A DNA stretch of 52,445 nt from Candidatus Omnitrophota bacterium (GTDB lineage Bacteria; Omnitrophota; Gorgyraeia; Gygaellales; Profunditerraquicolaceae), in assembly GCA_018895075.1 (NCBI GenBank), contig JAHIOW010000042.1, positions 1 to 52,445 of the forward strand. The letters run 5' to 3'. Below are positions 9,845 to 52,445 of this stretch, one piece after another (the first letter of the stretch is position 1; each line of letters begins with the position of its first letter). The notes under the pieces are model-generated. The model was not told the DNA's origin and made no database searches. It saw only the letters and a program-made list of their open reading frames with translations. A program made the translations under genes and the position numbers.

Positions 9845-10294
9845 TTATTTTTTGACGACCCAGACCTTTAGCTGCGCAGAAACCTCTGGGTGTAATTTTA
9901 TAGACACCTCGTATATGCCTAAGGACTTTATATTCTCATTCAAAATAATAACATTTTTATCGATATCAAAACTTTCTTCTTTTAAGGCAGCTGATATGTC
10001 TTGTGCTGTTATGCTTCCATACAATTTATCTTCTTGGTCTTCGTGGGTTAAAACCGGCAGGGTTAAAGATAAATTTTCTAATCTCTCTTTAAGTTTTTCG
10101 GCATCTCTCTTAGATTTCTCTAATTGTAAAGTTTTTCTTTGTTTTTCCTGTTCTAACTTTTTGAGGTTTGCGGATGTCAGAGGGACAGCCAAGCCATTGG
10201 GTATAAGAAAATTACGGGCAAAACCATCTTTTACCTTTACGATGACACCTACCTTGCCTAATCTATCTATATCTTGATTTAATATAACTTCCAT
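9845..10294 (-). CDS. rplI: 50S ribosomal protein bL9
   Basis: MEVIL..LG..G..VKVKDGFARNFLIP, KLYGSIT. Confidence 0.97.
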   Translation of the reverse strand: MEVILNQDIDRLGKVGVIVKVKDGFARNFLIPNGLAVPLTSANLKKLEQEKQRKTLQLEKSKRDAEKLKERLENLSLTLPVLTHEDQEDKLYGSITAQDISAALKEESFDIDKNVIILNENIKSLGIYEVSIKLHPEVSAQLKVWVVKK

Positions 10295-10450
10295 TTTAAA
10301 TGAGCAGACAATTTACGGAGTGAAACGACGTAAATTGTAGCTCCCTTAATATCAGATTTCACGGCGTCTGCGAATTTAATCCGCCTTCGGCGGATAAGTT
10401 CGGACATATAACTTATGTCGCTCTCCGAGCTCCATAAGTTATGTCCTCAC
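10295..10450. mobile_element. Multi-hairpin MITE-like intergenic element, copy 1
   Basis: Collinear with 52180-52338. Hairpins ACAATTTACG/CGTAAATTGT and TCCGCC/GGCGGA; ends TAAATGAG and CTCACTTA. Confidence 0.75.
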
Positions 10451-10714
10451 TTATATAGCGCGGGCGTAAGGTATAAGCGAAAGAAAGCGGGCGCGTTTAA
10501 TCGCCTCCATCAGCCCTCTCTGATGTTTAGTGCAATTACCTGAAATACGCCTGGAGAGGATCTTTCCTCTTTCTCTGACAAACCCTTCCATTATTTTTAT
10601 ATCTTTATAATCTATGGTTTTAACTTTATTTACACAGAAGCGGCAAAATTTTTTCCTTGTAGATAAAAATGCGTTTCGTTTCTTCTTAACGGGTATCTTT
10701 CTCTTAACTCTCAT
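10451..10714 (-). CDS. rpsR: 30S ribosomal protein bS18
   Basis: [39 protein letters not shown]. Confidence 0.97.
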
Positions 10715-11151
10715 TGTATTGCGCCCTCGCTTTCTTCTAACCAGGATGTCTCTGTAGATGGTTCTTTTGAGGCTTCCTGGGACGGGGAATCCGCAAATGA
10801 CGGCTCTGCTTTTTTAGGCGCCGCCCCTAGAAACTGAACGCGCTCTACCCTTACCTCAATCACATTGCGTTTTTGCCCGGAATTATCCTCCCAGGAGCGC
10901 GACTGCAGCCTGCCTTCTATAAATACCGGGCTTCCTTTATGCAAATATTGATTGCAGGTTTCTGCCTGTTTATCCCAGACTACCCCGGTAACAAAACAGG
11001 TATCTTCTTTTAATTCCTGGGTTCTACTATCCTTGAACCTTCTGTTTACCGCAAGCCTGAGATTAACTACCGCGGTACCCTGCGGTGTATAGCGCAATTC
11101 CGGGTCCTTGGTCAGATTACCGATGAGTAATACCTTATTGAAATTAGCCAT
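10711..11151 (-). CDS. ssb: Single-stranded DNA-binding protein
   Basis: [27 protein letters not shown]. Confidence 0.97.
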
Positions 11152-11211
11152 TTTTCTCCCTCCGCTCGAAAAAGTCTTAAACTCCTAAACTGTATACCTA
11201 TAAACTCTAAA

Positions 11212-11505
11212 CTATTTATCTTGTCTTGTAATCAGGACTCTTAATATATTCTCATTAAGTTCATATAGGCGCTTTAGCTCTGATATCAGTGCGGGGTCGG
11301 TGAGGCTAAAATTCACAAGATAATATACCCCCTCTTGACATTTTTTTATGCTAAAGTATAACTTTTTTTTCTCTGACCAGATTCCTGCCTGCGATACGTT
11401 ACCTTTATTTTTAACTATGACATCGCTGATCTGATCAAATAAACCCTTCTTTTCTTCCGGCGACAACTCCGGCTTAATAATAAACATTGCCTCGTATTTT
11501 CTCAT
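11212..11505 (-). CDS. rpsF: 30S ribosomal protein bS6
   Basis: MRKYEAMFII.P, G.YYL, ENILR; rpsF-ssb-rpsR order. Confidence 0.94.
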   Translation of the reverse strand: MRKYEAMFIIKPELSPEEKKGLFDQISDVIVKNKGNVSQAGIWSEKKKLYFSIKKCQEGVYYLVNFSLTDPALISELKRLYELNENILRVLITRQDK

Positions 11506-51915: not shown

Positions 51916-52179
51916 TTACTCCTCATTGCTGATAATCTTCTCCAGCTCCGACATAGCCATATGCGCGTCATCGCCTTCGGCTTCAATTACAATCTGGCTG
52001 TCTTTCTCTGCGCCCAACATAAGGATACCCATAATAGACTTGCCATTTATTTCTTCTTTGCCGCGCTTTACCGTTATGCGGGCATCAAATTTATTTGCAA
52101 CCTGGACAAATAATGCCGCTGGGCGGGCATGTAGCCCTTGCTTATTTTTTACTATTAACTGCTTTCTGACAACAACCAT
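51916..52179 (-). CDS. ptsH: Phosphocarrier protein HPr
   Basis: GLHARPAA, NGKSIMG. ATG 52179 preferred because the upstream extension lies in the repeat. Confidence 0.96.
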   Translation of the reverse strand: MVVVRKQLIVKNKQGLHARPAALFVQVANKFDARITVKRGKEEINGKSIMGILMLGAEKDSQIVIEAEGDDAHMAMSELEKIISNEE

Positions 52180-52338
52180 TATAAATGAGCGCATAACTTA
52201 CGGAATAAAATGACGTAAGTTATATGCGCGAATTTAATCCGCCGAAGGCGGATAAGTTCGGACTGATAAGTTATGTCGCTTAGATTATCTTTAATATAAG
52301 GCTCCCTGCCGGCAGGCAGGCATAACTTATGTCCTCAC
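52180..52338. mobile_element. Multi-hairpin MITE-like intergenic element, copy 2, with nested CCTGCCGGCAGGCAGG
   Basis: Collinear with 10295-10450; TATAA on both sides on the minus strand. Confidence 0.75.
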
Positions 52339-52445
52339 TTATATCTCTTCAATAAACCCTAAAATAGCCCTGGCTAATTTTGAAGAATCATGCCTGACCA
52401 TGCCTTCGCTCATTACGATATCGTCCCCAATCACCCGATAACCCA
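52339..52445 (-). CDS. yvcK: 3' end of a YvcK/CofD-family gluconeogenesis factor (partial)
   Basis: GYRVIGDDIVMSEGMVRHDSSKLARAILGFIEEI*. VRHD..KLA is the typical C-terminus, and the gene precedes ptsH. Confidence 0.75.
   Translation of the reverse strand, partial: GYRVIGDDIVMSEGMVRHDSSKLARAILGFIEEI

Follow-up and report, generated by a model that had tools for sequence, protein, structure and literature searches.

The 52,445-nt stretch of Candidatus Omnitrophota DNA analyzed here (contig JAHIOW010000042.1, hereafter the window) contains two operon junctions, one between rpsR and rplI and the other between a CofD/YvcK-family gene and ptsH, at which the intergenic spacer is filled from the upstream stop codon to the downstream start codon by look-alike sequence elements. 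Our comparisons suggest that both spacers are probably gene-less, non-autonomous copies of a mobile element that is found across the phylum Omnitrophota, that sits on the stop codon of the upstream gene and that bears a small GIY-YIG nuclease gene in its complete form. An earlier note on this DNA had proposed that the two ends of each element pair with each other and thereby reunite the stop with the start. The assembly (1.05 Mb, 73 contigs, 41% G+C, 88% complete; genome G000 below) includes the window as its contig C37.

The rpsR–rplI spacer is 156 nt long and is occupied by copy 1 (10297-10453), which runs on the minus strand from the rpsR stop TAA (10451-10453) to the rplI ATG (10292-10294) and reads ...GCT ATA TAA-GTGAGGACATAA...GCTCATTTA-AA-ATG GAA on the coding strand. 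The CofD/YvcK-family gene–ptsH spacer is 159 nt long and is occupied by copy 2 (52182-52341), which runs, also on the minus strand, from the stop TAA at 52339-52341 to the ATG at 52177-52179 and reads ...GAG ATA TAA-GTGAGGACATAA...GCTCATTTA-TA-ATG GTT. The stop-to-start filling by copies of one modular repeat and the shared end sequences (TAA-GTGAGGACATAA...GCTCATTTA-NN-ATG) are as the earlier note had reported; its coordinate for the copy 2 stop, which it had placed at 52341-52343, needs correcting. Reading both junctions also bore out the lack of an obvious Shine–Dalgarno (SD) sequence, GGAG-type motifs being absent before the ATG of rplI and that of ptsH. The two copies can be aligned by modules only and are not collinear (77% mean column identity, two large indels), and each folds far better than its shuffled versions (z -4.9 for copy 1 and z -4.7 for copy 2). 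The duplicated TATAA that had been remarked at the edges of copy 2 is a coincidence, because across the family it is TAA that recurs at both edges, and the spacing in copy 2 is the customary one (CTCATTTA, 2 nt and ATG), with one substitution.

The likeness of the two spacers is not due to chance. A BLAST search of both copies against the 1.05-Mb genome returned 31 merged loci at E<=0.01 (one of them a contig-end duplicate of copy 2, and another merely a nested GC palindrome), and a hidden Markov model (HMM) of the half-element gave 38 matches at E<0.001. This model was used in place of a first core regular expression (TTAYG...CRTAA), which caught just 17 hairpins owing to a 2-nt bulge; an energy filter on hairpins likewise lost true copies. 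In each element, a short GC hairpin at the center separates the left half (TAAGTGAG-G...C-CGAACTTA) from the right half, the latter being an inverted and consistently different copy of the left half that reads inwards TAAATGAG-C...G-CGAATTTA. Indeed, among 144 distinct halves, the positions diagnostic of left versus right co-vary as sets, with G4/G9/C56 in 92 and A4/C9/T56 in 41. Full elements of 130-260 bp, single halves and nested palindromes all occur, as inverted doublets, singlets and mosaic combinations. Beyond this genome, element DNA was found in 27 of 41 related genomes belonging to several families of one order, and a 23-letter terminus pattern matched at least 122 stretches in a species-representative collection, all 80 titled records of these matches being Omnitrophota metagenome-assembled genomes, some of them labelled Planctomycetia. 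Rfam 15 has no match at gathering threshold in the window except three tRNAs, and none at E<=1 in 10200-10550. A full-text search of the literature, whose coverage leaves out most subscription journals, found no description of the element in Omnitrophota.

With regard to its placement, the upstream open reading frame (ORF) terminates at the left-terminal TAA of the element at C17:32953, C33:14765, C41:847 and C63:57844 as well as in both window copies, and at four further loci of the genome an ORF ends a few codons inside the element. The right end is followed by two nucleotides and an SD-less ATG at C45, C48, C53:23298, C55, C63:47072 and C63:57109 and in both window copies, and by an SD sequence and a start codon at C17, C41, C53:9895 and C73. 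The same stop triplet is found at both edges (TAA...TAA) in the window copies and in others of this genome, and the few copies that run against the direction of the genes (one at C33:10833, two in the riboflavin operon) still have a stop on one side and a touching ATG on the other. Among 80 loci of other Omnitrophota genomes, 49 have a terminal TAA that lies in the frame of an ORF of 55 or more codons; three elements lie right after a gene's own TAA, three face a gene start, three are cut off and the rest are ambiguous. A right end was located at 42 of these 80 loci; 23 of them show an ATG at a distance of -1 to 4 nt, 16 have a start codon 5-15 nt away, in most cases behind AGGAGG, and three have neither. 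As a yardstick, 414 of the 6717 tolerated TAA sites of the genome, that is, those outside gene interiors, are stop codons (6.2%), and TAA-N-ATG makes up 28 of its 258 TAA-stop junctions. Since 49/80 is to be set against a yardstick of 6.2%, the placement on stop codons is far from random and is not accounted for by a preference for TAA alone. The copies thus do not lie at random TA-rich sites, which would have counted against the earlier note; their TAA falls on the stop codons of tight gene junctions.

Among relatives, the same junctions can be filled or empty. Over 30 genomes, the rpsR–rplI junction is filled in G000 and G001 alone, the other 28 having unrelated spacers, of which 23 are 2-39 nt long and five of these <=5 nt. 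The ptsH junction is filled in G000 and G014 alone, and 17 of the other 29 genomes have -4 to 5 nt from stop to start; one genome has an overlapping TAATG. A third junction, rplI–dnaB, is filled in G001, G010 and G014 and not in G000. Metagenome contigs from two groundwater sites, which stem from a relative about 90% identical, join position 10295 to position 10467 with 11 other letters between, and this empty rpsR–rplI allele reads ...CGC ATA TAATGG AAG, with an overlapping TAATG; the comparison is based on contigs alone, and this nearest empty allele is about 10% diverged and not from the same species. The many other joints and loose ends in the metagenomes come from other organisms or other repeat copies. 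The empty TAATG overlap that had been deduced by collapsing the duplication therefore does exist, at rpsR–rplI in the metagenomic relative and at one ptsH junction, but most empty sites consist of TAA, 1-5 nt and ATG. On the mobile-element reading, the long spacers before the two genes of the window are insertions rather than regulatory leaders.

Complete copies, found in relatives, reveal what the window copies may have lost. In G032 (L179:1501-1758) and G039 (L010), the upstream gene is followed by the left half with its TAA, one arm of the central stem, an SD sequence, a GIY-YIG ORF, the other arm, the right half and the next ATG; the ORF, 79-85 aa long and provided with its own ribosome-binding site, thereby lies in the loop of the central hairpin. 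A third adjacency of nuclease and element occurs at G014:C21. In the element-borne ORFs, Pfam recognizes the GIY-YIG domain and no other (E 1e-18 and 9e-10), and their closest solved relatives in a PDB search are UPF0213 proteins (1zg2, E 7e-7); an NCBIfam search of the nuclease gave nothing above cut-off. Homologues of this nuclease are present in 222 of 301 sampled Omnitrophota genomes, and at four of the 30 best nuclease loci of this sample (L194, L196, L200 and L208) halves of the family abut the ORF. Most of the other loci among these 30 display a short GC-rich inverted repeat round the ORF, each arm being bordered on its outer side by an identical stop triplet, namely TGA...TGA in L191, L195, L197, L198 and L204 and TAA...TAA in L190, L206 and L210. 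Since the complete copies in relatives carry a GIY-YIG gene, the window copies would be non-autonomous derivatives of such copies, which is consistent with the MITE-like repeat (MITE, miniature inverted-repeat transposable element) that the earlier note had entertained.

Two further observations concern the small nucleases of relatives. At L190 (G053:C33), a second, gene-less mini-hairpin with the same arms lies downstream of the nuclease-bearing element, with a TAA after each unit and an ATG after the last, an arrangement that looks like successive insertions at a regenerated stop codon. Other small GIY-YIG ORFs lie inside or directly beside tRNA genes (L187 in G009, L188 in G001, L169, L170, L172, L181 and L184), with tRNA-like halves on both sides of the ORF at L187, which suggests a separate tRNA-associated nuclease cassette.

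How such an element could spread and be tolerated may be pictured as follows. The stop triplet at both outer edges lets the upstream ORF retain a stop, and whatever trailed the old stop (1-2 nt and ATG, or SD and ATG) trails the right end unaltered. By analogy with the Ssn system discussed below, the nuclease may act in trans, recognize the two oriented hairpins as single-stranded DNA and drive the spread of the element by nicking at its outer edges, the movement then being completed by host replication or repair. Insertions would persist where the stop is recreated and the downstream initiation region left untouched, and the copies would be co-transcribed within operons. SD-less downstream genes would still be translated, either because, with the three hairpins formed, hardly any RNA stays single-stranded from stop to start, or because these genes had no need of an SD sequence in the first place; candidate explanations for these starts are a restart across the compact folded insert, processing to a near-leaderless mRNA and ordinary SD-independent initiation.

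Several points weigh against the mobile-element interpretation as a whole or against parts of it. The more than 10-fold excess at stop codons is left unexplained by a simple preference for TAA. The TAA may represent either a target duplication or a portion of the inverted termini, and the reversed copies of the riboflavin operon (C63:53807-54000 and 54589-54782) end TAA...TTA. At 26 of the 30 best nuclease loci, the HMM detects no arms of this family. In the present assembly, 88% complete, a search for a small GIY-YIG gene found just a UvrC-type match and no match to the element-borne protein; the copies of this genome may be orphans. Finally, we know of no joining activity in a GIY-YIG nuclease.

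The covariation of the halves bears on what the hairpins are for. Over 71 left halves, compensatory double changes occur at 5 of the 16 predicted pairs of the 13-bp stems (for instance, GC in 39 versus CG in 31, or AU in 45 versus CG in 23), with four G.U cells in all, and the compensatory changes that the earlier note had spotted in one hairpin of the window copies (CAATTTACG/CGTAAATTG versus TAACTTACG/CGTAAGTTA) are present. Of all stem cells, 1220/1248 are Watson–Crick in left halves, with 4 G.T and 5 A.C, and 539/585 in right halves. The scarcity of wobble pairs speaks for hairpins that are maintained as DNA rather than as RNA structures. In 141 distinct halves, the terminus is base-paired to the inner linker within the same half, through near-invariant pairs (T1-A in 134, A3-T in 141 and T5-A in 140) and through compensatory ones (A2-T in 115 versus T2-A in 15, G4-C in 95 versus A4-T in 43 and G8-C in 136 versus A8-T in 3), beside conserved tandem G.A (138) and A.G (141). 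Because covariation puts each terminus inside its own half, the element amounts to three hairpins side by side rather than to a junction that its two ends would close.

A looser form of translational coupling, compatible with the mobile-element reading, deserves to be weighed on these grounds: the abutting hairpins could keep stop and start close, or direct RNA processing to a near-leaderless cistron, and only such a compact architecture would then persist in operons. We regard this as possible, if doubtful. It fits with the prediction of almost no unpaired bases from stop to start, with the SD-less starts lying 0-4 nt past the right hairpin in 23 of 42 elements and with the bias in orientation, left termini being found on 49 gene ends versus 3 gene starts over the 80 loci. 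However, the near-lack of G.U pairs in the stems suggests a constraint that acts on DNA and not on RNA, and 62 of the 98 empty tight junctions of the genome (about 63%) are also devoid of an SD core, so SD-less initiation may be ordinary here. In a more speculative extension, which we put forward with little confidence, this stop-codon-seeking DNA may have evolved to be translationally neutral, its hairpins serving as a ribosome bridge to the SD-less ATG 0-4 nt on, or as a processing site that yields a near-leaderless cistron.

The stricter proposal of the earlier note, in which pairing of TAAGTGAG with CTCATTTA is selected and rejoins stop and start to preserve translational coupling, appears unlikely. 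On the sense strand the two ends can pair with a single G.U, and in the minimum free energy (MFE) fold of copy 2 the end-to-end stem does close a junction, but the MFE fold of copy 1 takes the intra-half stem instead, and the termini covary at positions 2, 4 and 8 with the linker of their own half. Of 19 full elements, 8 have the end-to-end stem intact and the other 11 show 1-3 mismatches in it, with a compensating change in none; the mean pair probability of this stem is 0.33, exceeding 0.5 in 9 of 42 elements. In favor of the proposal, the downstream ATGs lack an SD, and a start lies within 4 nt of the right end in 23/42 elements; core or essential genes follow such ends (dnaB, rplI and nusB), which implies that initiation must still work there. 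Within the final 18 nt of the upstream gene, an SD core occurs at 4/18 filled junctions versus 149/1043 in the background and 36/98 empty tight junctions; being no commoner at filled junctions than in the background and rarer than at empty tight ones, it gives no indication of a bridged SD, with the reservation that these numbers are small.

A repeat of the REP/BIME/REPIN type, moved by a Y1 (RAYT, IS200-like) transposase, would fit the mosaic of palindromic units in inverted pairs and singlet halves, and Y1_Tnp genes are at hand, with two in this genome and others in 30 of 41 relatives. Yet Y1_Tnp (PF01797) shows no association with the element (20/27 genomes with it versus 10/14 without), no element arms lie near the two own Y1 genes or six of the best foreign Y1 loci, and the gene found inside the arms is a GIY-YIG nuclease. 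This origin is accordingly very unlikely, and the Y1 transposase was discarded as the mobilizing enzyme for its lack of association and for the absence of arms at these 8 loci. The two Y1_Tnp genes of G000 (IS200/RAYT-like) are located at C46:1833-2324 and C48:56-607 and encode 163 and 183 aa. We give scarcely any more credence, and in fact slightly less, to a classical MITE derived from an insertion sequence with a DDE transposase and a TA or TAA target duplication: the mutually inverted halves, the TAA at both edges and the size of 130-260 bp would suit it, but the long copies found carry a nuclease and not a transposase (DDE families were not searched for), and the left and right ends are consistently distinct. 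Last, a cis-regulatory structured RNA (leader or riboswitch) of both operons, to which the strong folding and covarying stems might point, is extremely improbable given the dozens of unrelated neighbor genes, its absence at the same junctions in 28/30 relatives at each site, the lack of any Rfam match at gathering threshold or E<=1 and the almost complete lack of G.U pairs in the stems.

Under the mobile-element reading, the parts of the two window copies, all on the minus strand, can be laid out in detail. In copy 1, the TAA that ends the rpsR ORF (10451-10453; S18 by Pfam) provides the first three bases of the left terminus (TAAGTGAG). The left (L-type) hairpin (10395-10453; HMM E 5e-14, also in the MFE fold) comprises a basal stem TAAGT/ACTTA, the tandem G.A/A.G and a 13-bp stem GGACATAACTTATG...CATAAGTTATATGTCC. 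It is followed by the central GC hairpin CCGCC-GAAG-GGCGG (10381-10393), which corresponds, by sequence and by comparison with nuclease-bearing relatives, to the site of the GIY-YIG gene in complete copies, and by the right (R-type) hairpin (10297-10378; HMM E 1e-9), which has a basal stem TAAAT/ATTTA, a stem CAGACAATTTACG...CGTAAATTGTCTG and an extra internal insert and ends in CTCATTTA. An AA spacer and the SD-less ATG of rplI (L9 by Pfam) complete the junction (10292-10296). In copy 2, the stop TAA of the CofD/YvcK-family gene (52339-52341; CofD by Pfam, E 6e-115, via contig C21) likewise forms the first three bases of the left terminus. The left hairpin (52253-52341; HMM E 6e-9, supported by the fold) holds a nested GC-rich palindrome (GCCTGCCTGCCGGCAGG...) in its loop; the central hairpin CCGCC-TTCG-GGCGG (52239-52251) has, on sequence comparison, its loop inverted relative to copy 1; the right hairpin GCGCATATAACTTACG...CGTAAGTTATGCGC (52182-52236; HMM E 4e-13) ends in CTCATTTA; and a TA spacer with the SD-less ATG of ptsH (HPr by Pfam) follows (52177-52181).

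Two features of these hairpins hint at smaller rearrangements within the family. The central hairpins at 10381-10393 and 52239-52251 share the same stem and have reverse-complemented loops (GAAG versus TTCG on the coding strand), which looks as if this small palindrome had flipped between the copies. The GC-rich palindrome nested in the loop of the copy 2 left hairpin (CCTGCCTGCCGGCAGGCAGG type, window 52284-52320) is also found alone elsewhere in the same genome (C53:27304, C33:18297, C63:42506, C60:3323 and C34:26708); it may belong to another small repeat family, one that inserts into the main element family.

Other observations concern the surroundings of the elements. In the riboflavin operon (C63:53800-59600, with locus L250 at 56600-59700), RibBA is followed by a full element, then by RibH, a half element and NusB, the genes being identified by Pfam. 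The two reversed copies of this operon flank a 193-aa ORF starting MFSGIVEE, likely a riboflavin synthase, whose start codon overlaps a terminus. A conserved module made of GTTAGAT, about 15-18 nt and CGTCTATT was noticed in G000 (C42:10430-10462, C73:17343-17385 and C46:1790-1830) and at loci L045, L098, L107, L114, L120, L176 and L178. In some cases it lies directly upstream of a left terminus; in others it precedes the SD-ATG of an unrelated gene, a Y1 transposase gene among them. This module looks like a promoter consensus of the phylum; if it were one, an element right behind it would be a 5' leader.

As for the window itself, the first junction belongs to the gene order pth, rpsF, ssb, rpsR, rplI, dnaB and the second to the order CofD/YvcK-family gene, ptsH, ptsI, both on the minus strand; the flanking proteins were identified by Pfam as S18 (E 1e-22), L9, DnaB, HPr (E 5e-31), CofD (E 6e-115) and three EI domains. 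The window ends 104 nt past copy 2, and the body of the CofD/YvcK-family gene lies on the 2-kb contig C21, which overlaps this end and stops in identical element sequence (C21:2045-2084, locus L249; window 52321-52445), so that the assembly evidently broke in the repeat. The ssb–rpsF spacer (window 11151-11226, 74 nt) is replaced by 21-26 different letters in contigs of relatives and therefore varies between strains; it is unrelated to the element.

If the above is correct, translational neutrality would let the element colonize junctions of essential operons (rpsR–rplI, rplI–dnaB and ribH–nusB) across the phylum, following a placement rule that can be put simply: on a stop codon, in one orientation and often touching the next start. 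Such junctions would offer a natural test bed for ribosome restart over a folded insert of about 150 nt without SD sequence, and the more than 10-fold excess at stop codons a handle on how the element chooses its targets. They also call for caution in the annotation of Omnitrophota genomes, in which these repeats break contigs and mimic leaders or riboswitches.

From the perspective of known mobile elements, several systems share part of this architecture. The free-standing GIY-YIG homing endonuclease genes of T-even phages (seg genes) are small GIY-YIG genes inserted between genes, as are those of the complete copies in relatives, but homing, in which the gene is copied into the same locus of a naive genome, leaves unexplained the dozens of gene-less hairpin copies at unrelated loci. 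Correia and ERIC elements are small non-autonomous inverted-repeat elements that are tolerated in operons and co-transcribed with their neighbors. The same can be said of the operon-tolerated Chunjie MITEs of Geobacter, small non-autonomous inverted-repeat elements that leave the operon unbroken (cited in the review PMC10969869), co-transcription being presumed for the present element. By contrast, Chunjie, Correia and ERIC derive from DDE-type insertion sequences with TA-type duplications, and the supply of a stop codon and the abutting of the next start are not reported for any of them in the passages of that review considered here. With respect to the definition of a MITE, terminal inverted repeats are present, as halves that are inverted with few fixed differences, whereas a transposase-encoding parent was not found, the long copies encoding a GIY-YIG nuclease and DDE families having been left out of the search. 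The REP/BIME/REPIN repeats associated with RAYT (cf. PMC3116915) also consist of palindromic units in inverted doublets, singlets and mosaics, extragenic within operons and persistent in lineages over long times. They differ in depending on a Y1 transposase instead of a GIY-YIG nuclease, in their shorter units and in the absence of an exact placement on stop codons.

The closest published analogue is the Ssn system, in which small GIY-YIG nucleases cut single-stranded DNA beside an oriented hairpin repeat (NTS/SRM) that flanks the nuclease gene and is dispersed in hundreds of copies, the authors likening NTS-ssnA-NTS to an insertion sequence (Chenal et al. 2025, Nat Commun 16:2388, PMC11893778). 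"Omnitroph" and "stop codon" are absent from the main text of PMC11893778, and "Omnitroph" is also absent from its 10 supplementary files. The published SRM motif, as a regular expression, matches three times in G000, with no match in or near the elements and 0-4 matches in first-order Markov controls. Unlike the hairpin of about 30 bp in Ssn, the element described here combines a central gene-holding hairpin with a pair of long inverted ones, each of about 55-90 nt and with tandem G.A, and, also unlike Ssn, it lies precisely on stop codons inside operons. The likeness is nevertheless one of architecture: a small single-domain GIY-YIG gene has hairpin repeats on both sides (in relatives, namely G032, G039, L194, L196, L200 and L208, and not in this assembly), the same repeats are dispersed in many gene-less copies, and the hairpins are oriented and conserved in sequence as well as in shape. 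The mechanism is presumably alike, and, if the link with the nuclease holds, the element would represent a compact and abundant form of these newly described GIY-YIG/hairpin-repeat systems, with an unusually exact placement rule.

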